Numbered from the stretch's first letter, positions 3 to 12,021 are shown. The stretch is DNA of 31,370 bases from Acidobacteriota bacterium (GCA_035299465.1 DATGWN010000075.1:1-31370), one strand, 5' to 3'. The notes: a model not told the origin generated them from the sequence alone. Translations and numbers: made by a program.

Positions 3-566
3 GAAATTAAGAAATACGATGGCAAAAAAGATATTGACATATTATTCGTTGGCAGACTTCATTTTCAAAAAAACGTCTTCCTGCTTCTTAATTCGATAGT
101 TGCCTTGCGAGAGAAACAACCTGACATTACCTGTACTATAATCGGGGACGGACCAGAATTGAAAAAGATTGAGAAGTTTATTCAGCAACATTCGCTATCA
201 AAAAATATAACGCTTAAGAAAAATACGAAGGATCACGACGAGCTATACCGCTATTACCAGCGGGCCAAGATTTTTGCATTCCCTTCACTTCTTGAAGGTT
301 TTGCCATCGTATCTTTGGAAGCAATGGCCTGCGGACTTCCTATTGTGACTATAGACGCACCTCAAAATCACGCAAAAGAGACAATAGGCAGCGGAGCTCT
401 ATACGCGAGTAACACGATCTCTGATTTTAGCCAGAAAATACAAATTCTTCTAAATGACAAAAAAATGTATCAAAGAATGAAGAATGAAAATTTGAAACGT
501 GCACAATCGTATTCTTGGACTAAAGCAACGAGACTATTGGAACGTTTATACTCGTCGCGGATTTAG
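3..566 (+). CDS. Glycosyltransferase family 1 (GT4-type), C-terminal portion; 5' end lies outside the window
   Basis: The frame is open from base 3 and the listed ORF starts at 105. It has the GT-B C-terminal hallmarks 'FVGRLHFQKN' and 'EGFAIVSLEAMACGLPIVTIDAP' (E-x7-E motif). Confidence 0.75.
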   Translation, partial: EIKKYDGKKDIDILFVGRLHFQKNVFLLLNSIVALREKQPDITCTIIGDGPELKKIEKFIQQHSLSKNITLKKNTKDHDELYRYYQRAKIFAFPSLLEGFAIVSLEAMACGLPIVTIDAPQNHAKETIGSGALYASNTISDFSQKIQILLNDKKMYQRMKNENLKRAQSYSWTKATRLLERLYSSRI

Positions 567-2006
567 ATAATATGCAGTGCTGTTCTCTAGCGAGCCATTA
601 CAGTTAAGTTCGGACAAAGCATCATCGCACAAATTCACCACTTCGCCATACTGTGCACAGGAGACGAGAGCTTTTTTGCAAGTTCCATTAACAATATAGA
701 TTGCCGTATTGAAGCAAACATTAGAAACACCGCCTTCACGCTTTAGTGTTCTTTCACAGAAAATTTCGTGAGTGGGATTATACATTTCTGGAAACACACC
801 TAACATTATCCTTGCCAAGGTGGTGTGAGACAAATAAGTTGAGTGACGAACATTCAAGTCAGAGATTCCAACAATGAATGCCTGAGATGCTATTATCACT
901 ATAAGAACGTAAGGAATGAATTTGATAGGCCGTAAGTATGAAATTTGTCTCACAATTATAAAAAAGAAAAACGGCATCAAAAGAACGGTATAACGACTTG
1001 GCCCAGCACTACCATGATTCCAATTTAGTTGCAATGCACAAAGTATTGCTATACAAAATACAACCACGATCAACGTATAATCCATAAGCCACTTGCGTTC
1101 TGCAATATAACTGTACCCAACAACAATGGGTACCAAGAGCATGCTAATTGGAATAAACGAGATCATACCTATATTCGCATCAAGGAACAATTCAATTACT
1201 TTGAGAAAGGACCAATATGCAATTGATATGTGGCCATCAATCACATTTATCTGCCCGAAATTCCAAAGATAAAAGAATGAAGGAATGAGTGCAAAAGCAA
1301 GAAAGAACACCTGATATAACTTCAGTCGCCAGTTTTGTCGATACATTGCGTTAATGCACACAAATAAAACATAAACCAATACTGCCTGATGTTGAAATGA
1401 GGCAAATATCGCGAATATAAGCGCTAGTGTTTGCCAGTTTTTGTGCAAGCAAACCAACGACATCACTAAAAAGGACGCGATGAATATTTCGACGTGGCTC
1501 CAGCGCAAATACAATAAAATAGGCGAAGTAAGTAGCAACAAACTATATGTAATTTTTTGACCAAAAGAAAATGTAGATAGAAAATGTATGAAAAATAATG
1601 CGGTTATAAGCAAAAGAGCGTTTGTTATTTGTAAAGCCTTGTATGGGTCAAAATGAGTGAGAATTAATAGTTTCATAACTCGAGCACTAATTAAAGAGTA
1701 CGCCCAAAAATGTGAACTATACAATTTTCCGTCACTTGTAGAAACGTAACCCGTGTAATTTGACAACGTACGCTGACCAAACGGATTAACTCCCTCCTTA
1801 TAGTATTCGGACAAATCTATTTCTTGCAAATCAGGCGAATCGTGATTTACAAATGACAAGGCCGTCAAATAATATTCATTACCATCACCTTGACGATAAG
1901 GAGAGAGGATCAGCATCGCACTCAGTAAAGCAACGCTTAACACAACAAACACAGTAATATTCAATCGATTTTCATTTTTTTGAAAAAAAGATTTGTGCAT
2001 ACTCAC
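546..2006 (-). CDS. Polytopic integral membrane protein, possible GT-C-type (PMT/ArnT-like) glycosyltransferase
   Basis: 486 aa with at least 10 hydrophobic helices. The first extracytoplasmic loop carries an acidic 'GDGNEYY' patch, and the C-terminal region is Cys-rich and soluble. The start overlaps the GT2 stop (ATGA at 2003-2006). Confidence 0.55.
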   Translation of the reverse strand: MSMHKSFFQKNENRLNITVFVVLSVALLSAMLILSPYRQGDGNEYYLTALSFVNHDSPDLQEIDLSEYYKEGVNPFGQRTLSNYTGYVSTSDGKLYSSHFWAYSLISARVMKLLILTHFDPYKALQITNALLLITALFFIHFLSTFSFGQKITYSLLLLTSPILLYLRWSHVEIFIASFLVMSLVCLHKNWQTLALIFAIFASFQHQAVLVYVLFVCINAMYRQNWRLKLYQVFFLAFALIPSFFYLWNFGQINVIDGHISIAYWSFLKVIELFLDANIGMISFIPISMLLVPIVVGYSYIAERKWLMDYTLIVVVFCIAILCALQLNWNHGSAGPSRYTVLLMPFFFFIIVRQISYLRPIKFIPYVLIVIIASQAFIVGISDLNVRHSTYLSHTTLARIMLGVFPEMYNPTHEIFCERTLKREGGVSNVCFNTAIYIVNGTCKKALVSCAQYGEVVNLCDDALSELNCNGSLENSTAYYLNPRRV

Positions 2007-3103
2007 TTTGTCTCAACCAGCAGAAAACTCACTAAGAACGCGCTCACAAACGCCTGAAAGGAGATCGTCGCGCCAGTCAACAAAAAGATGAGCAAGTTCG
2101 TATTCAACACCACCTGGTTAAACCACCAATCGTAAACGATCCAGCCCAGTGACGCGCTAAATCCAAGCAAAACCAAAACTGCAAACGACATAGCAATCTC
2201 AAACGGAATTTTAGCCATCGCCGTCAACAATTTCTCTTCAGCACCCAATCCACGTTGCTTCAAGACGATTTTCGCAATAAAACTCACTTGCAAAACGCTA
2301 AACCCAGTATAACACAAGAAGCTGGCAACTAATGCCGCAGAACGATAGAACGTGATAGATAGAAATTCTAATTGCCCGCCGATTGAGAACAGCAAAAGCG
2401 CTCCGCCCGTTAAGAAACTGATCATACCTATCAAGAAGAATAGGTTCAGAGGAATGTACGCAATCAAAAATCGAAGATGGCGCCAGCCATCGGCCCATGT
2501 CGATAATTTGGACTTACCGACCCGTACATGATATCGAATCGGCACTTCAACTATTTTAAAACGGTTCAGCAACGATTTAACAAGCATCTCTGACGCAAAC
2601 TCCATCCCTGTTGTTTTGCAAGAGAGAGCCTCAAAGTCTTTGCGATGTATCACTCGAAAGCCGGAATTATTATCGGTGATTCGCTGATGAAAAAGAATCG
2701 ACAAAAATCCTGAGAGAAGCGGAGTCCCGACGTATCGATGAAAAAACGGCATCGCGCCATGATCAACAACTGACCGTTTACCTATCACAAGCGTTCCTGC
2801 GCGCGATTTCTTGATAAGCGCAAGTGAATCACGAAAATCGTACGAACTATCGCAATCGGCGATCACAAATACAGAACCTGATGCGGCTGCAATGCCTTGC
2901 ATAATTGCCGCACCATAACCGATTTTATTATGTTTTACGACAGTCGCGCCATGCTGTTTTGCAATACGACCAGACGAATCAGAAGACGAATCAGACACAA
3001 TGATTTCGTACGAATGTCCCTTCATCGTATGGTGGATGGCGTCTACGCATCGTGCAACGGACTTCTCTTCATTACGACAAGGTAAAATGAAACTATACAT
3101 CAT
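2003..3103 (-). CDS. GT2 glycosyltransferase, dolichyl/polyprenyl-phosphate sugar synthase-like, with C-terminal 4-TM (GtrA-like) region
   Basis: The N-terminus 'ILPCRNEEKSV...IIVSDSSSD...' and 'VIADCDSSYD' (DXD) are typical GT2-A fold motifs. The C-terminal 120 aa are hydrophobic. Confidence 0.8.
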   Translation of the reverse strand: MMYSFILPCRNEEKSVARCVDAIHHTMKGHSYEIIVSDSSSDSSGRIAKQHGATVVKHNKIGYGAAIMQGIAAASGSVFVIADCDSSYDFRDSLALIKKSRAGTLVIGKRSVVDHGAMPFFHRYVGTPLLSGFLSILFHQRITDNNSGFRVIHRKDFEALSCKTTGMEFASEMLVKSLLNRFKIVEVPIRYHVRVGKSKLSTWADGWRHLRFLIAYIPLNLFFLIGMISFLTGGALLLFSIGGQLEFLSITFYRSAALVASFLCYTGFSVLQVSFIAKIVLKQRGLGAEEKLLTAMAKIPFEIAMSFAVLVLLGFSASLGWIVYDWWFNQVVLNTNLLIFLLTGATISFQAFVSAFLVSFLLVETK

Positions 3104-3135
3104 TATGAAAGTAGGGTAGATATCTAATTATATAG

Positions 3136-4524
3136 TTAGCTGAGAGCCGTGTCCTTCACTTTATATATAAATAAACCGTCCGTAGACAGCTCGGCCAAAA
3201 ACGAACATGTTTCAGGTTTTCTGTTTACAACATACTCAGCGCCCAATGAGCGTATAATTTCTTCTTTTTTTGCACATGTATCTGCATTGAAATACGATAG
3301 AACTGCATCTCTATTGCCTTCCTCCCATACACGCAAATACAGAGGCCTCTGCCCTGCACCTAAATACATGACATTATTCAACAATTCGTATGATAAAACT
3401 GGCGCTTGAGGTTGTGCACGAAGTACCGAAAGGGCATCAAATTCATTTTGCTTGACCATTTGACTCACGGTCTTAAATTCAATGAATTGATTATCGTAAT
3501 AACAGAATCCGACTATGAATAAAACACAGAGAACTACCACAAAAAAACTCGCACGAAGTCTAATTTTAGAGAGAAGTGTGTTTAGTTTTACCCCAGCGAA
3601 AATAATACCGATTGATCCCAACAATATGGTTGCAACCATAAGAAGGTAATAGTTTCGTTCAGCCGGCACTAATATGCTGAACTTGAAGAATATATACAAT
3701 AAAGCATTACAAGAAGTTATCAATGCAAGCCAAACTAAAACGATGAATGATTTAGCATGTGCGACCTTATTAAATTTTATTACATAAATAGCTAATATCG
3801 AAAAAATAAGTAGTGGAATACCACACAGGAAAAAAATATTGAACATTGAAATACTGTTTATGTCTGTATCTCCAAAGAATAGTAAGGATTGAATTGTGTA
3901 TCCAAACTTAAAATGTGCTACATATAATAAGGCTGCCCCGAAAAGAATACCCACAGCCAAAATGCGCTTGGACCTGTATACAATTAGACCTAAAATACCG
4001 ACAACAATCGCTGTGGGTGGATGAACAAAGCACGTAGCCACTAAAACTAACACATACTTCCATGTCACGGTCCTTGCCCGTAATGTAACTAGCGCAAGTA
4101 TGAGCAATGAAACGCCCAAAGACATTGGGACACCGTACAGAATCCCTAGAAGCTTAGCATTCGATGGCAGAGCGCCATACAAGCATAGGGCTACGATACT
4201 TATCCGCTTGTCGTCAAAGAGTTTCCACAAACCAATTCCTGCTAACACAATACAGGTCAACGTAACGATAAAATATCCCGACAGTGGAACCAATAACAGC
4301 CAGAATGCGACAAATATGATGAAACCCGCTTCCATATGAAAAAGTGCGGACCAATCGCCATCGAGGAACTGCTGAGCCAACGTAGCATGGCGCCATTCAT
4401 CGTTATGCCAAGGCAAAAAAAGAGTCGCTCGCTGTACGTAAAACGACACCAGAAGAATCAAAATAACGCATAAGTATAATCCAAACAATAATTTTTTTTC
4501 TTTATACTTATTTCGTAAAGACAT
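3136..4524 (-). CDS. Polytopic integral membrane protein with C-terminal soluble domain; second possible GT-C-type glycosyltransferase
   Basis: 462 aa with many TM helices. The first loop has an 'HNDEWRH' acidic motif. The C-terminal domain of about 110 aa is soluble. Confidence 0.55.
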   Translation of the reverse strand: MSLRNKYKEKKLLFGLYLCVILILLVSFYVQRATLFLPWHNDEWRHATLAQQFLDGDWSALFHMEAGFIIFVAFWLLLVPLSGYFIVTLTCIVLAGIGLWKLFDDKRISIVALCLYGALPSNAKLLGILYGVPMSLGVSLLILALVTLRARTVTWKYVLVLVATCFVHPPTAIVVGILGLIVYRSKRILAVGILFGAALLYVAHFKFGYTIQSLLFFGDTDINSISMFNIFFLCGIPLLIFSILAIYVIKFNKVAHAKSFIVLVWLALITSCNALLYIFFKFSILVPAERNYYLLMVATILLGSIGIIFAGVKLNTLLSKIRLRASFFVVVLCVLFIVGFCYYDNQFIEFKTVSQMVKQNEFDALSVLRAQPQAPVLSYELLNNVMYLGAGQRPLYLRVWEEGNRDAVLSYFNADTCAKKEEIIRSLGAEYVVNRKPETCSFLAELSTDGLFIYKVKDTALS

Positions 4525-4548
4525 TGCTTAAAGACGGAACAAAGGATT

Positions 4549-4555
4549 AAAAAAA
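4549..4555 (-). terminator. Oligo-T tract (T7 on the transcribed strand) 6 nt after the stop of the three-gene secreted-protein unit
   Basis: The plus strand reads 'ttaaaaaaag' immediately below the stop at 4562, which fits the archaeal oligo-T terminator pattern. Confidence 0.35.
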
Positions 4556-4561
4556 GTATCG

Positions 4562-5296
4562 CTAGCAGTAAGGACATAAATCGCCTGCGTTTGGTGCAGG
4601 ATCTGGGCAACATGCATATGGACAAATTACTTCACATTGAGCGCAATAAACACTCCATCCGCCTTCATCGAAAGGGCTATTATCGTTGTTATCACAAGTA
4701 CCGTCACAATTTTCATTTCCTCGGCAATTTCCACCACAAGCATCACAATTACATGGCGCATCAATAGGACCCGAAGGTGCAACCGAGCAATGATCCCAGG
4801 GATCGTGTTTGCCTGGTCCTTCTTCAATGATACCAGGAGCGTCATAGTGAGGCTCACCTGGCGAACAGCGCCCGTTACATGAAGATCCTAAACCTGGTAA
4901 GCTACCTGCAGCTGAAGCTGCATTACATGTACCATCGCAAGAAATTGTACCCCACTGTTCATCGTGTGCATGGCCATCAATACATGTATATTCGTTACGA
5001 CATTGGTTCACACCAGCATATCGGAAGCAAACAGCAGTTGAATAATTTGAGAAGGAATTAAATTCCCCGCGAGTAGCAGTACTTACAAAAATGCTTGTTG
5101 AACCGCTGTTATTAAAATAAAATTCACCAGTCGAAATTTCAGAAGCCCCATTCCAATATTCTGTCGAATAAGGAGTTGTGACTACAACATTCGTACCAGG
5201 TGGAACAATAATTCCACTTGAATTGTCATCAGCCTGTACAAGCATAATAAGTGAAAAAGAAAGCAAAATCCAGAGTATAAATTTGAGCTTCATCAT
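4562..5296 (-). CDS. Secreted cysteine-rich protein (signal peptide + beta-rich N-domain + C-terminal domain with about 30 Cys)
   Basis: The N-terminus 'MMKLKFILWILLSFSLIMLVQA' looks like a signal peptide. The C-terminal half is dense in C-x2-4-C spacing and ends '...CPDPAPNAGDLCPYC'. It starts 12 nt downstream of the 1095-aa gene. Confidence 0.7.
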   Translation of the reverse strand: MMKLKFILWILLSFSLIMLVQADDNSSGIIVPPGTNVVVTTPYSTEYWNGASEISTGEFYFNNSGSTSIFVSTATRGEFNSFSNYSTAVCFRYAGVNQCRNEYTCIDGHAHDEQWGTISCDGTCNAASAAGSLPGLGSSCNGRCSPGEPHYDAPGIIEEGPGKHDPWDHCSVAPSGPIDAPCNCDACGGNCRGNENCDGTCDNNDNSPFDEGGWSVYCAQCEVICPYACCPDPAPNAGDLCPYC

Positions 5297-5308
5297 AAAT
5301 TGTCCTTT

Positions 5309-8300
5309 CTAATCACTAAGTGCTGCAATTTGCGCTTTCAACTCATCGATTTGTTGCTGTTGAGCGTCAATCATGCGTTGTTGTTCTTGTACTGCTGCGA
5401 CAAGAGGAGCAACCATGTTGCCGTATTGGACTGACTTGAGTCCTGAAGCATCAGTATTTACAACTTGTGGAAGTACTTTCTCGACGTCCTGAGCGATGAA
5501 ACCGATTTGCGTGTTCATGTCAGCGGAATCTTTCCATTCAAACGTAACTGGCTTGAGTGCAAGTACCTTGGAAAGCATTGATTCGTCGTTGAGCTGTCGT
5601 ACGTTCTTCTTCAAACTTGCATCTGAAGTATACCAGTAAGCTGTTGCACCGACTGCGCCGTTGACTCGTAATTTGTATGTTGAAGGAGCGACACCAATAC
5701 CGACGTTTGTAGCGTCATCTTGGATGATTGAGTTTGTTAATGTCGTGCCTGCAGACCATTTCGGAATGTATGCAGCAGTACCGCTACCGCCGATACCACC
5801 AGCTGCTGCTGCCCAGTAACCTTCGTTTGTCCCGTCAGAAGTCCAAACTTGTCCGTTTGTACCTGCTGATGTGATGAAATATGCTCCATTCTGAACTTTT
5901 GCAGCTGTAAGTGTACCGTCTGCCAAGTCATCAAGATCCGCGTCGTATGCTTGGACGTTCGATCCGATTGCAAGACCCAAATTTGTTCGCGCAGTTGCAG
6001 CGTCGTTTGCGCCTGTACCACCGCGAGCGACTTCAATTGCACCTAGTGTAAAGAATGCAGTTGCTGAATCACCTGATAATGCGTTACCAGCTTCGCCGTC
6101 ACCAGCCGCATAGTTTCCAGTTGTATCAGTACCCAATGCAACACTATCTGCCGCAATTGTAGCGCCAACAACACCTGGACCAGTAGCAGTAACGTCACCA
6201 GTCAATTGACTGATACCGTTTCCGCCGCCGTCAGTACCACAAGTGAATGTGTTCGTACCAGTATCATAAAGAAGTTTGCTTGTTCCTGCAACATCACAAT
6301 CAGGGATAGTTTGTGCTTGCCAGCCGCTGCCGCCTGCACCAACCATGACTGCGTCTTCTGTTGCAGAAGTCAATCCAGTACCACCGCGAGTATATTCGAT
6401 TGCACCTGAACTGAAGAATGCCGTTGCTGAGTCACCAGTAAGTGCTGCACCAGCTTCTGCGTCACCAGCCGCGTAGTTACCCGTTGTTTCTGTACTGAGC
6501 GTAATAGCGCCATCAGACAAGGAAATCAAGTTGAAAGTTGGACTTGCCGCAGTGTGTATATCTTGAGGCAATGATAAAGTTGGAGCACCAGAGAGACCGT
6601 CACCATTAGAAACGGAAACTTGGTTTGCCGTACCTGTGATTGTTCTTGTCGTGAATGTATCCGCACCAGTTCGAACGACAATACCTGTCGAAGCGAGTTG
6701 GTGGATTGCTAGAGCCTGACCAGTAAGACCGATTGTTCCAGTCGTAGTGATTGGACCGCCTGTGACACCGTTGTTTGTTGCAATGTTAGTAACCGAACCA
6801 GCGATTGCTGAAATTGGAATACATTGTACACCGCTCGTCGTTGTATTTTCAACAACTGTGCCTGCCGCACATGTGCCAGGCACTGATTTTGCGTTTAATT
6901 GAGTTTGAATCGCTGACGTGACACCGTTGACATATCCAAGTTCTGTTGCAGTAGTAGTTGCAACTGCGACCTTACCTGAACCATCAGAAACGAGTGCGCG
7001 AGATGCAGTCAAATCTGAACTAGTGATAGATGTTGCACCACCAGTGATAGTTGCTTGCTTGCCGTTAAGTTGAGTTTGAATAGCTGATGTGACACCCGAT
7101 ACATAACCAAGTTCAGCAGCTGTTGTCGCTGAAACTGCGACTTTACCTGAACCATCTGATGCAAGTGCGCGGGATGCAGTCAAGTCCGAACCAGTGATAG
7201 ATGTTGCACCACCAGTGATAGTTGCTTGCTTGCCGTTAAGTTGAGTTTGGATCGCTGATGTGACACCTGAAACATAGCCGAGTTCTGTCGCTGTTGTTGC
7301 GGAAACGGATACAAGTCCTGAACCATCAGACGCAAGTGCGCGCGAAGTAGTCAAAGCAGGAAGTCGTGCAAATGGAACTGTACCAGATTGCATAGTGCCA
7401 GAAAGCCATAAGTCTGTCCATCGTGCACCCGTTGAACCAAGATTGAATGTCGCCGAAATGTTAGGCAAGAAGTCGCCGTTCACCGCAGTAGCTGCAGCAA
7501 GGTAGACATCGCCAGATTGTACGATGAGATCGCCGCCGAGGACGAGATTACCAGTAATTTGCGTTGCACCAGCAACGTTGAGCTTGAATGCACCTGGCGA
7601 GCTTGTACCGATACCGATGTTTCCACCAGTCTGATACATTTGCGAAGATGCAATCGTTGAACCGCCTGTGAAATATGATATATTGCCTGCGTCACCAGTA
7701 CCGTCGATACCACCTGCGCCTGCAATTGATGAACAAGTGTAAGAACTGTTAGTGATTGCTGTGAGAACTTGGCCACCGCCACATGTTCCGACTGCGCTCT
7801 TAGTCATCGCTAAATCATACGCCAGCTTAGCTGCGTTTGGTGTAGCGGATGTGTTTGTTGACGAAGATTGAACACCATCAGTAAGCATGACGACACCGAT
7901 CTGCGCCGTTGTACCAGGGCGAATCTGCTGATTTGATGCACCAGTTATACGACCTTGAGCGTCGATTGCGATTTGAGGACTTGAAATTGTGTCACCATAT
8001 GTTGCTGGAGTGACTGCTGTGTTCGCAAGGTTAAGTGTAATACCACCGGAAAGCGAACCACCGCCAGAAAGACCAGTACCTGCAGTAACTGATGGATTAC
8101 CTGAAATTCTTGCCCATGGAACTGAACCATTTTGAAGATCTCCAGACCAACCAACATCACCGTAGACGTGCAATCTATATAATGGGACGACTGGACCTAC
8201 ACCGATTTTGTCGCCAAAATCAATGATGATAGAATCGCCGATTTCACTTTCGTTGTTGAACTTAGGAACACGATTAGAATTACCTTTTGATGTAACGTTA

Positions 8301-8596
8301 CCTACGCCGCCGACACCGCCAGTTGGCCATGAACCACGGCAATCTGCACCGATGCATAGACCACTAGAACCACGAGCATAACCTGTGACATCAAGCGCTT
8401 GCGTTGGAGTGCCCGTTCCGATACCGACTTTACCCGAAGTACCGTTTACAACGAGATAATCGATAGATGGTGATGATGAATTCTCAATGACAAAATCTCG
8501 AGCATATGCTACTGGAGAAAATGCGAAGAGTAGTAATACCAAGATACTGATTAATTTAGTTGCTGATGTCATTCCCCCTATTCCCCCAGTTCTCAT
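5309..8596 (-). CDS. Giant secreted Gly/Thr/Ser-rich tail-fibre-like surface protein with C-terminal intramolecular-chaperone (peptidase S74-like) autoproteolytic domain
   Basis: Signal peptide. Repeated 'G-x-VGIGT-x-x-P-x-x-KL-x-V-x-G' motifs and three 57-aa tandem repeats. The C-terminal 105 aa, '[11 protein letters not shown]...[10 protein letters not shown]...[15 protein letters not shown]...' followed by a coiled coil, match the phage tail-spike chaperone domain. Confidence 0.8.
6880..7392 (-). repeat. Three tandem 171-bp (57-aa) repeats inside the 1095-aa gene
   Basis: 'ttgagtttgaat...' recurs at 6899, 7070 and 7241. The protein unit is '[12 protein letters not shown](K/L)V(A/S)VSATTA(T/A)[31 protein letters not shown](G/S)SDL'. 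Confidence 0.85.
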
Positions 8597-8616
8597 GTTT
8601 GTACTCTGTACTCTTT

Positions 8617-11600
8617 TTAAATCTTAATGTAAACGTCACCGTTCGAATTCAAACCGACTGAACCGCTGTTCGTCGTTGCTTGGAACGTACCCACAACATC
8701 AAGTTTGTTTGATGCCGTTGCTGTATTGATACCGATGTTTCCGCTGTTTTGGAAAATCTGTGATGATGCTACCGTTGAACCTGCTGTGAAGTATGTGATA
8801 TTTCCTGCGTTACCAGAACCGTCGATACCGCCTGCACCAGCGATTGATGTACATGTGTAAGTGCTGTTCGTGATTTGCTGCAAGACTTGTCCACCCGCAC
8901 ATGAGCCAACTGCTGCTTTCGTAGCTGCCAAGTCATACGCTAGTTTGACTGCGTTCGGAGTCGCAGATGTGTTTGTCGACGAAGATTGTACGCCGTCCGT
9001 TAACATCAAAACACCGATCTGTGATGTCGAACCAGATCTGAATTGGTTTGTGCCTGCCGCAGTCAATCGACCTTGAGCGTCTACAGTGAATGACGGAATT
9101 GCCGTATCAGAACCATATGATCCTGCGCCGACAGCCGTGTTTGCTAAATTGAGTGTGACTGAACCCGAAAGTGCTCCGCCACCAGACATACCTGTGCCTG
9201 CAAGAACTGATGGGTGACCAGACAATCGTGCCCATGGGACTTCACCTGATTGCATCGTGCCTGAAAGCCACAAATCATTCCATCGAGCTCCAGTGGAACC
9301 GAGATTGAAAGTCGCTGACACGTTTGGTAAGAAGTCGCCATTTATTGCAGTCGCTGCCGCAAGATAAACGTCGCCCGTCTGAAGTATGAGATCGCCACCT
9401 GTGATAACGAGATTTCCAGTCATCAAAGTATTTCCTGTGACTGATAATTTGTATGAACCAGGATTGTTATTTCCAATACCAACATTACCTTCGATGACTG
9501 CACCATCGGATGGCGGAGTTGTTGCAAGATAACTATTTCCTACACGAAGATCGTTCAAAGTTCCTCGGTAACCAACCATTTCTACATTGTTGCCAAGTCG
9601 CTTGAATCCGCCGTCAACTGCTGTTCCACTGACTTTCACAATATATGAACCATCAGAAACACCGGAGTGATTTACGCGAAGTGGACTGTCTGCGAGAGGA
9701 GTTCCAAGACCTGTGAAACCTTCGACAATAAGACCATTTGAAGCATTTCCAAGCGATGCGTAACTTGAACCAATCGAGACGTTACCTGAAACGGATAATT
9801 TGGAACCTGGTGATGAAGTGCTCAAACCGATTCGACCGCTCGTCTGGTATAATTGTGCGGATGCCAAGTTTGACGTACCAGTCCAGTATGAGATATTGCC
9901 TGCGTTACCAGTACCAATTGTTCCGCCGATCGCATCGATTGGAAGACATTGAACACCAGTCGTTGTTGTGTTTTGGACAAAGTATCCAGCTGCACAACTT
10001 CCTGCTGTCGCTTTGATGAGTGCAAGATCGTATGCAGTTTTGACTGCTCTGGATGACGCAACTGAATATGTTGAGTTATATGACACACTATCATTCATGA
10101 TAGCGATACCGAATTGTGAAGTATTTGAGTAGGGGACATCTGACAATCGAGCCCATGGGACTGTACCAGCTTGAAGAGTTCCCGTGAAACCGACATCGCC
10201 TTGTACATCCAACTTATACGAAGGAGTTGAAGTTCCAACGCCGACATAACCACTTGTTTTCAAAGACATGACTGGTCCGCCGTATCCTGTATTCGTAATC
10301 GTGAATGTATCTGGGTTGTTTCCGGACATACCTGCACCGATTCCCCATAGATAATTATTACTTGATGACGTCAAAGCGCCACCGATGCTGCCAGTAACGC
10401 CTGAACCGAATGCAATTGATGATTCGCCCACTGCCGTGTTGACGACTTGAATTTGTCCGTTGCTGCCAGAAGTTGTTTCGACAACAAGTTTACCGCCGTA
10501 CAAGTGAGCAAGAGCGCTTGGTGACGTTGTTCCGACACCCAATCTGCCCGCGTCAGTTAATACTGCTTTAGCAGTGCCTGACGTGACGAAAGTCATATTG
10601 TTTGAAGACGGAAGATAGATACCTGCGCCCGAACCTGAGAATGTGCTCGTCGGGGAAAATTGTAATTCGCGTGAAGTGCCGAGTGCGATCTGGCCGTTTA
10701 CCGTGAGTTCTTCGTTTGGCGAAGACGTACCGATACCGACAAGACCTGTATTTGTGATGACCATTCGGTTTGACGTAGAATCATAATCATAGAACTGAAG
10801 CAAGCCACTTCCTGTGTCCGCATATGTTACTTCCCATCGCTGGCTGCCTGAACTGTTGACGAACTTGAGTTGGCTTGAACCAGATGAAGTCTGTTGTAAT
10901 CGCAAATCACCGACGACATGTAATCGACCAGCCGGAGCTGTTACACCAATACCAACGTCACCGCTATTTTCAAACGTAACTCTGTCGTTGCCAGTTGAAT
11001 CGTAGAATCGTAAGTCGTCGCTCGATGCAGGAACGTATGCTAACCATTTGTTTGTGCCTGCTTTCTTGAAGTAGAGTGTTGCTGCCGTAGCCGCGCTCGA
11101 ATCGATTGCTGCAGATGCCGCAGCAGTGCCTGCGCCGACGTGTAAATTACTTGTTGGAGCTGCGGTGCCGATACCGACATTGCCTGAAGTATCTATAGTA
11201 AGAGCAGTATTAGTGCCTAGATCTGCCATTGAGCGGCCGATTTTGAATTTGTCTAAATCGCTATTGTCCGATCCAATCATCCAAGCGACACCGCCTGACG
11301 AGAAACCAAGAGTTGCATCGCCTGCGCCAGCTTGTTCTACTCTGATTATATCAGAAGTAGTTGCATCGTTCTTGTATGCGCGAATGATTTCGCTGCCTGA
11401 AGCAGCAGTCGTACCTACAGCAAGATTTGTTGAAACATACGCATCGCCAGAAACGGAAAGTCGCGTAGTCGGACTTACGCCAATACCGACGTTACCACCG
11501 TCGACGATTCTGATTGCGCTCGTAGAAGTACCGTCTGAAATGTCGACACCACCAAGCCAACCTGCCGATGCACTTGTACCGTAACCGATTCGAAGGACAT

Positions 11601-12021
11601 TCGATGTCGTGTTATCGATCAAAGCGCCTTTTCCATTAAATGAGAGATTATTACCTGCAGAAATCTGGATAGCACCTGCCACATCCAACTTTTGTGCTGG
11701 AGTTGCAGTACCTATACCGACATTAGATGTCAAGTAATATACATAATTAGTAGTAGTATTTCTTCGCCATGGACCGATATATGATTGGTTGATCGCACGG
11801 TTTAGCGTCGTTTCACCAATTCCCGGAATGTCGGGGACTTTGACGACGATCTGGTTTGCATTGTGACCGTTTAAGATGCTGCTTTGGAATGTATGGTTAC
11901 CGACAGATAATAATGTGTCAGAAATGAGCTCGTCTGCAACAGAAAACGGCAACACCAACAGTGTAATGATTGTAAACAGAGCGTAACAGATAATACTTTT
12001 TGAACGTTTCCCTACAGGCAT
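8617..12021 (-). CDS. Giant secreted Gly/Thr/Ser-rich tail-fibre-like surface protein, paralogue of 5309..8596 without the chaperone domain
   Basis: Signal peptide '[20 protein letters not shown]'. At least 10 copies of the GxVGIGTxxPxxKLxVxG motif. The C-terminal 300 aa are about 70-80% identical to an internal segment of the neighbouring gene, in permuted order. Confidence 0.8.

Follow-up and report, generated by a model that had tools for sequence, protein, structure and literature searches.

Two giant neighbouring genes, here called A and B, lie in the stretch of DNA that we analyzed (the window; 31,370 nucleotides (nt), contig DATGWN010000075.1 of assembly GCA_035299465.1) and have in common a block of approximately 270 amino acids (aa), whose two parts, X and Y, stand in the order X-Y in A and Y-X in B. 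We conclude that this block is probably a conserved structural unit, an old paralogous module, and that it reflects the ordinary mosaicism of fibre genes and not a live recombination cassette. Judged from their sequences, A and B appear to be adjacent paralogous genes of a small archaeon of the symbiotic type (DPANN, Woesearchaeota-like) that encode exported, fibre-like proteins of about 1100 aa, export being read by inspection of the N-termini. An initial annotation of the same DNA had described module shuffling between the two genes. The genes are indeed mosaic and share modules in a different linear order, but this order does not come from a rearranged pair of cassettes, and we see no active shuffling.

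The two genes are co-oriented, and the start of B lies 20 nt past the stop codon of A. By inspection, each N-terminus has a basic n-region, a hydrophobic core and an AxA-type site (Table 1). The possibility that A and B are a single gene broken by a stop codon was ruled out: B has its own start codon and its own signal-peptide-like N-terminus, and the pair is therefore two genes, not one that was split. Both proteins are singletons in the protein collection; an exact look-up in the gene-position index gave no record of either.

Comparison of A with B by several methods gave the same two segments of similarity. BLASTP aligned A 914-1132 with B 145-366 (63.5% over 222 aa, E 3e-82), and BLASTN returned two diagonals, one pairing nt 2781-3300 of A with nt 474-993 of B (72.4%, E 2e-75) and the other pairing nt 2599-2796 of A with nt 1039-1233 of B (76.8%, E 1e-38). 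A dot-plot, which had been proposed as a check, shows extended diagonals between the genes far beyond chance; in its ungapped protein version there are two, A 863-943 with B 342-422 and A 910-1107 with B 141-338, each at 65% identity. The earlier placement of the similarity, which matched the C-terminal 300 aa of A to approximately residues 150-410 of B, was right to within a few bases. In window coordinates, positions 7357-7537 correspond to 9219-9399 at an offset of +1862 (77%), while at an offset of +1118 positions 7604-7757 correspond to 8722-8875 (79%) and 7767-7917 to 8885-9035 (74%). Guided alignment gave 84% aa and 75% nt identity for block X (A 863-930, B 342-409) and 65% aa and 65.5% nt identity for block Y (A 927-1134, B 158-368). 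Within X, the core (A 876-926) is 90% identical to B at the protein level, and the whole X linker (A 848-937) is 74% identical to its counterpart. The related sequence common to the two genes amounts to about 800 nt.

The order of the two blocks can be understood once the proteins are divided into smaller modules. We distinguish a G core ('VGIGTxxPxxKLxV'); W ('VPWARL'); Ya ('SGGGxL...DAQGRLT'); Yb, which is the match to Phage_fiber_2; Yc, a Cys loop; and Yd ('AGNISYFT'). Between G and W an insert of about 55 aa, X, may or may not be present; where it is missing, a short conserved linker takes its place (A 593-630 and B 131-168 are 58% identical). Mapping by motifs and hidden Markov models (HMMs) gave the layout G593-W-Yb-Yc(type 2)-Yd-G731 ... 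G847-X-W-Ya-Yb-Yc(type 1)-Yd-G1096-end for A and G131-W-Ya-Yb-Yc(type 1)-Yd-G327-X-W395-(3 x 57 aa)-Yc(type 2) ... S74 for B. Module adjacencies were then counted with iterated module HMMs on the 150 best representative homologues. Ya is followed by Yb 34 times, W by Ya 16, Yb by Yc 9, G by W 8, X by Ya 8, Yc by G 7, and X by W, Yc by Yd and Yd by G 3 times each; G is followed by X twice. Individual homologues read X-W-Ya-Yb-Yc (P0136), X-Ya-Yb-Yc-G (P0179), X-Ya-Yb-Yc (P0254) and W-Ya-Yb-Yc twice over (P0126). On this mapping, A, B and distant homologues obey one cyclic module order, G-[X]-W-Ya-Yb-Yc-Yd-G. B reads Y-X because its X belongs to the next unit of the cyclic array. The cyclic order being present in both proteins, the two alignments are two frames on one periodic array, which gives the appearance of a circular permutation. 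As this model predicts, A 910-943 aligns with both W junctions of B.

The initial annotation had spoken of blocks of about 230 aa at 70-80% identity in circularly permuted order. The swap of order is real, and identity reaches 73% over 253 columns after B is re-ordered like A, but the arrangement is a cyclic module order and not a circular permutation. In a circularly permuted domain the halves of one folded domain are exchanged, whereas X and Y are separate, self-contained modules, found independently elsewhere and in one direction; what is swapped is the place of adjoining units in a repeat array, and no single domain is rearranged internally. A single true permutation could still be imagined, in which an ancestral X-Y was duplicated to X-Y-X-Y and then trimmed at both ends to leave Y-X in B. 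Such an event would leave the footprint that is seen, that is, a W remnant ('VPWARI') before Y and a full X-W after it in B, with A 910-943 aligning to both junctions. However, what precedes Y in B is no decayed X but a linker of the distinct, conserved short type that is shared with A 593-630 and is also found in P0126 and P0230. Furthermore, X of B is followed by a different body, made of three 57-aa repeats and a type 2 Cys loop, and not by a second Y. Since the periodic order of the whole family suffices without a dedicated permutation event, we consider this history unlikely.

A contains an older, shorter unit (A 643-748 is 46% identical to A 1008-1113), whose Cys loop (A 671-702) is closest to that of B 571-602 (59%). 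The three tandem repeats of B are 77-81% identical in aa sequence, with a synonymous divergence (dS) of 0.65-0.74; they are younger than the block shared by A and B, yet not recent, and they sit where other units have Ya-Yb. A second internal duplication in B pairs window positions 6012-6132 with 6375-6495 (aa 688-750 and 809-871; 54% aa and 78% nt identity). The last residues of A ('GDVYIKI') might be taken for a truncated X; this idea is weakened by P0136, which has the same kind of ending, and the terminus of A is probably a natural end and not a truncation inside X, as far as the comparison with this homologue indicates.

Table 1. Positions of genes A and B and of their parts in the 31,370-nt window.
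Feature	Window position	Strand	Extent	Description	Basis
Gene A	8617-12021	minus	1134 aa	Fibre protein without S74 domain; NCBI HLP79901.1 'phage tail protein'	
Signal-peptide-like N-terminus of A	11935-12021	minus	29 aa	Site SVA|DE	Read from translation
Older shorter unit in A	9781-10245	minus	aa 593-747	G, short linker, W, Yb, Yc (Cys loop type 2), Yd, G	
Block X in A	9244-9435	minus	aa 863-926	Long G-to-W linker	Alignment to B 342-409
Block Y in A	8686-9243	minus	aa 927-1112	W 'VPWARL', Ya (SGGG...DAQGRLT), Yb (Phage_fiber_2), Yc (Cys loop type 1), Yd (AGNITYFT), G core	Aligns to B 158-343
C-terminal end of A	8620-8685	minus	aa 1113-1134	Similar ending in nearest outside homologue P0136 ('...NGNGDMIFRI')	
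Gene B	5309-8596	minus	1095 aa	Fibre protein with terminal S74 chaperone; NCBI HLP79900.1 'tail fiber domain-containing protein'	
Signal-peptide-like N-terminus of B	8501-8596	minus	32 aa	Site AYA|RD	Read from translation
Block Y in B	7568-8125	minus	aa 158-343	After short G-to-W linker aa 131-164 (window 8105-8206)	
Block X in B	7361-7567	minus	aa 344-412	After Y body, ending 'VPFARL'	
Three tandem 171-nt (57-aa) repeats in B	6863-7375	minus	aa 408-578	Then Cys loop type 2, aa 571-602 (window 6791-6886)	Repeat search
S74 intramolecular chaperone / predicted self-cleaving domain of B	5312-5626	minus	aa 991-1095	'SDASLK' at 991-996	Pfam

The age of the shared block was assessed from dS and nonsynonymous divergence (dN) by the Nei-Gojobori method. 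The core of X has a dS of 1.84 and a dN of 0.06 (dN/dS about 0.03), and Y a dS of 1.38 and a dN of 0.29 (dN/dS about 0.2). Among identical residues, identical codons number 23 in X, where 20.5 are expected at saturation, and 71 in Y, where 57.5 are expected, which is moderately above. The synonymous sites of the block are thus saturated; the divergence is old, and the likeness has been kept by purifying selection on the protein. Saturation being similar in the two parts, X and Y are equally old at silent sites, and X is under the stronger constraint.

These values bear directly on active cassette exchange, in which recombination or gene conversion between the blocks of A and B would still go on in the living population and yield surface variants. 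In its favour, A and B lie side by side in the same orientation with about 800 nt of related sequence in common, and fibre and adhesin genes are classical targets of this kind of variation. However, DNA identity between the copies is 66-77% overall, the longest identical run is 15 nt and there are no patches of raised identity (the best 60-nt window reaches 85%). The long near-identical nucleotide stretches of the initial annotation were therefore not recovered; its example, positions 7660-7900, is 75% identical to its partner at the true offset of +1118 and 22% identical at the offset implied by the coordinates given. The codon counts point the same way, being near saturation for X and moderately above it for Y. 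Within the window, no Pfam or PHROG domain of a recombinase, invertase or reverse transcriptase was found, long inverted repeats are absent (those found are at most 31 nt long and 71-86% complementary), and the mismatches between A and B form a flat spectrum with no adenine bias. Neither copy is a silent cassette, because both lie within full-length genes that have signal-peptide-like N-termini of their own. A diversity-generating retroelement was rejected on account of the flat mismatch spectrum and the missing reverse transcriptase, and a shufflon or invertible cassette on account of the lack of significant inverted repeats and of a recombinase. With synonymous sites saturated and identical runs so short, the repeats are poor substrates for recombination today, contrary to what had been proposed, and nothing in the window indicates programmed surface variation; the initial annotation had suggested that the repeats may drive surface variation. 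We regard active exchange as highly improbable. An assembly artefact, in which mis-joined strain variants produced the repeated block, deserves even less weight and is close to negligible: the contig does come from a metagenome-assembled genome and is apparently mis-binned, but the copies differ at 25-35% of their nucleotides, lie in frame within two long intact open reading frames (ORFs), and have separate signal-peptide-like N-termini and different module contexts, which strain collapse does not yield.

Where the two copies came from was addressed by taking A 863-1134 as the query and searching 1.84 billion representative proteins exhaustively with HMMER. The matches were A itself, then B (348 bits), and thereafter mostly giant proteins made of Ya arrays; the next colinear relative after B is P0136, at 43.6% identity. 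No other sequence is thus as close to either copy as the copy in the neighbouring gene; as far as such comparisons can indicate, duplication or exchange inside the lineage is a better explanation than independent acquisition. Under the latter, A and B would each have received X and Y separately, the donors being phages or other cells. Ya and Yb occur widely among phage-type fibre proteins, and no homologue of A or B adjoins the valyl-tRNA synthetase gene (ValRS) in the 10-kb flanks of 45 related genomes, so that the whole locus may have been acquired. Against separate acquisitions stand the mutual closeness of the two copies in so large a protein set and the scarcity of X elsewhere: scans for the X motifs gave one weak relative (24 aa) in 241 million metagenome contigs and none in 2.9 million viral contigs, and population variants were found in neither set. 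We think independent acquisition improbable, and a common origin inside the lineage remains the reading that we prefer; as far as the flank and contig scans reach, the fibre locus is lineage-specific. When B 128-411 was used as the query of a word-indexed protein search, all matches were below 500 aa in length and spanned just the Ya motif (B 158-235), and neither A nor B was among them; this type of search misses giant proteins, and its negatives for them are unreliable.

Several points weigh against our reading of the block as an old module in a common cyclic order. The best cross-gene partners do not follow each other in the same way in the two proteins: in A their order is short linker, type 2 Cys loop, X and Y body, and in B it is short linker, Y body, X and type 2 Cys loop. 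To explain this discordance, a module junction must have undergone a real rearrangement, a differential loss or an exchange at least once, and the sequences thus indicate that some old, true mosaicism persists beyond the picture of two shifted frames. The higher conservation of X (84-90% aa identity, against 65% in Y) could reflect a later exchange in place of stronger constraint, although the dS values do not support such an exchange. An AlphaFold2 monomer of A 863-1134, built from an 8-sequence alignment, was uninformative, with a mean predicted local distance difference test score (pLDDT) of 40 and a predicted template modelling score (pTM) of 0.17; A and B would fold as intertwined trimers at the cell surface, and a low monomer pLDDT might be compatible with an obligate trimer, of which it proves nothing. 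Finally, close orthologues of the locus were not found in the scans made, and its history is read from a single genome.

Both proteins have the hallmarks of fibres. Phage_fiber_2 (PF03406) matches A at 36.5 bits (aa 998-1036) and B at 27.6 bits, above a cut-off of 22 and in both cases inside block Y, and PHROG assigns both proteins to tail-fibre families. B additionally matches Peptidase_S74 (PF13884) at aa 991-1046 with 59.5 bits (cut-off 22, E 3.9e-16); an SDxxxK motif ('SDASLK') lies exactly at the start of this match, and the region also shows a weak match to the solved tip of a long tail fibre (6F45). A has no Pfam match to Peptidase_S74 and is not a member of the S74 fibre proteins. The shaft of A (aa 272-613) matches solved fibres of Bdellovibrio, 8OND (bd2133, E 2.5e-10) and 8OJN (E 7e-7), through repeats of the form 'IDTSGNxGxGTAAPTSxLHV'. 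Consistent with this, G-core repeats at aa 101, 282, 356, 428 and 593 follow one another through the N-terminal half of A (aa 1-600, window 10222-12021), which is homologous to the beta-helix shaft of those fibres. B lacks such a shaft region and has no match to the solved Bdellovibrio fibre structures, and in sequence searches of A and B the shared X-Y block matched no solved structure. In A the capping-loop motif fits the strict pattern at aa 101, 356, 593 and 731, and the module models give further sites at aa 282, 428, 847 and 1096. In B the strict pattern gives aa 327 and a model aa 57, and two more sites, aa 131 and 965, were recognised by reading the sequence. Neither protein is enriched in N-glycosylation sequons.

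The genes around A and B are archaeal and include a Hef nuclease (874 bits), an archaeal FEN-1 (394 bits), ValRS, CysRS and an AglJ-like glycosyltransferase. ValRS is closest to that of Woesearchaeota and Nanoarchaeota genomes, with up to 68% identity, and P0126, to which the Y body is closest outside this pair, belongs to GCA_047603125.1, which is also the assembly of one of those Woesearchaeota genomes. The contig is labelled 'Acidobacteriota bacterium' at NCBI although its genes are archaeal, and judging by these genes it is probably mis-binned. Outside A and B, Pfam and PHROG searches found no phage gene in the window, which also contains no transfer RNA genes and no Rfam matches.

Other features of the neighbourhood may be recorded here. 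An ORF of 244 aa (4562-5296, minus strand) begins 12 nt after B; it has a signal-peptide-like start, its C-terminal half is very Cys-rich and it has zero matches in Pfam, NCBIfam and PHROGs. Its product might serve the fibres as a partner encoded in the same operon, such as a tip or assembly factor. Downstream of the fibre genes, at 105-4524, lies a cluster of the surface-glycosylation type, comprising a fragment of a family 4 glycosyltransferase, two polytopic membrane proteins (486 and 462 aa) without a family match, and a family 2 glycosyltransferase that resembles AglJ or a dolichyl-phosphate hexose transferase with a score below the cut-off. The guanine-plus-cytosine (GC) content is 44-49% across the fibre genes (5001-12000), 36-45% in the 5-kb flank on the low-coordinate side and 43-45% in the other flank. 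The GC difference may mean that the fibre locus is an insertion specific to the lineage; alternatively, it may arise from the Gly/Ala/Ser/Thr-rich composition alone. In the Woesearchaeota MAG.56 contig JBLKOU010000052.1, P0126 is followed by a secreted protein of 853 aa (2144-4705) that looks like a beta-helix by eye only and has no BLASTP match to A or B at E <= 1e-3; in this related archaeon, too, large surface proteins are thus paired.

Taken together, the sequence features suggest how the pair might work. A and B would be exported through the Sec pathway, and B would be matured by S74 self-cleavage at Ser991. The X-Y unit would be a conserved structural segment with a distal place in A and a proximal one in B. 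The X linker precedes the Y body in A, and in B a short linker stands before the body and X in the linker that follows. The fibres may act in adhesion or host recognition, plausibly in the contact of a DPANN cell with its host. To our knowledge, host recognition and attachment by DPANN archaea are largely unknown, and a limited literature search found no description of S74-like fibres, or of fibres resembling those of Bdellovibrio, in these archaea. A tandem pair of predicted exported fibres, one with and one without S74, with a shaft homologous to the prey-recognition fibres of Bdellovibrio, therefore offers testable candidates for DPANN attachment. The locus draws its interest from this context and not from the repeat itself; taken at face value, the claim of active shuffling would suggest a variation mechanism that apparently does not exist here. 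The module order G-[X]-W-Ya-Yb-Yc-Yd is also a practical scheme for parsing giant genes of this type.

Three kinds of known systems can be compared with the pair. Programmed surface variation operates by gene conversion from silent cassettes (pilE/pilS, vlsE), by shufflons or by diversity-generating retroelements. A and B resemble such systems in being neighbouring genes for putative surface proteins with repeated sequence in common, and differ in having no near-identical tracts, silent partial copies, recombinase or reverse transcriptase, inverted repeats or adenine-specific mismatches. The second comparison is with phage tail fibres and tailspikes that carry a C-terminal S74 chaperone, such as the K1F endosialidase and fibres of the T5 L-shaped type, and with the classical mosaicism of tail-fibre genes in P2, Mu, lambda and the T-even phages. 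The matches to Peptidase_S74, Phage_fiber_2 and PHROG families, the modular, repeat-rich design and the occurrence of common blocks in different contexts in different fibre genes are all points of likeness. In contrast to phage fibres, A and B have housekeeping and glycosylation genes as neighbours, no further phage gene occurs in the 31 kb, and they begin with signal-peptide-like N-termini instead of a virion-attachment domain.

The third comparison is with the 'mosaic adhesive trimeric' (MAT) fibres of Bdellovibrio bacteriovorus, proteins of about 1000 aa that have a signal peptide and comprise an S74 and a non-S74 subfamily (Caulton et al. 2024, PMC10769870). They carry a repeated loop motif, V-G-G/N-pi-x-x-P-x-x-x-L, a catalytic Ser-Lys motif of S74, SDxxxK, at the cleavage site, and a beta-rich domain, conserved and about 130 aa long, that directly follows the signal peptide; MAT paralogues have fibre regions in common and diverge after them, Bd1334 and Bd2133 being 75% identical in the fibre region (PMC10769870). 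A and B are like them in their size of about 1000 aa, their signal-peptide-like N-termini, the loop motif (here 'VGIGTxxPxxKL'), the presence of one S74 and one non-S74 member, and the sharing of fibre regions between paralogues; homology of the shaft to solved chains (Bd2133, 8OJN) is confined to A. On these sequence features, which are what the comparison covered, A and B fit the description of MAT fibres. The host differs, being an archaeon and not a predatory bacterium, as does the arrangement, with two tandem genes in place of the 21 dispersed ones of Bdellovibrio. We suggest, as a tentative possibility to which we give well short of even weight, that A and B are an archaeal counterpart of the MAT system, in which a DPANN episymbiont would show its host one S74-matured and one non-S74 trimeric fibre, and in which the G core and 'VPWARL' would have served as joints for the re-assortment of modules over evolution, giving the partner order 1-2-3-4 in A and 1-4-3-2 in B.

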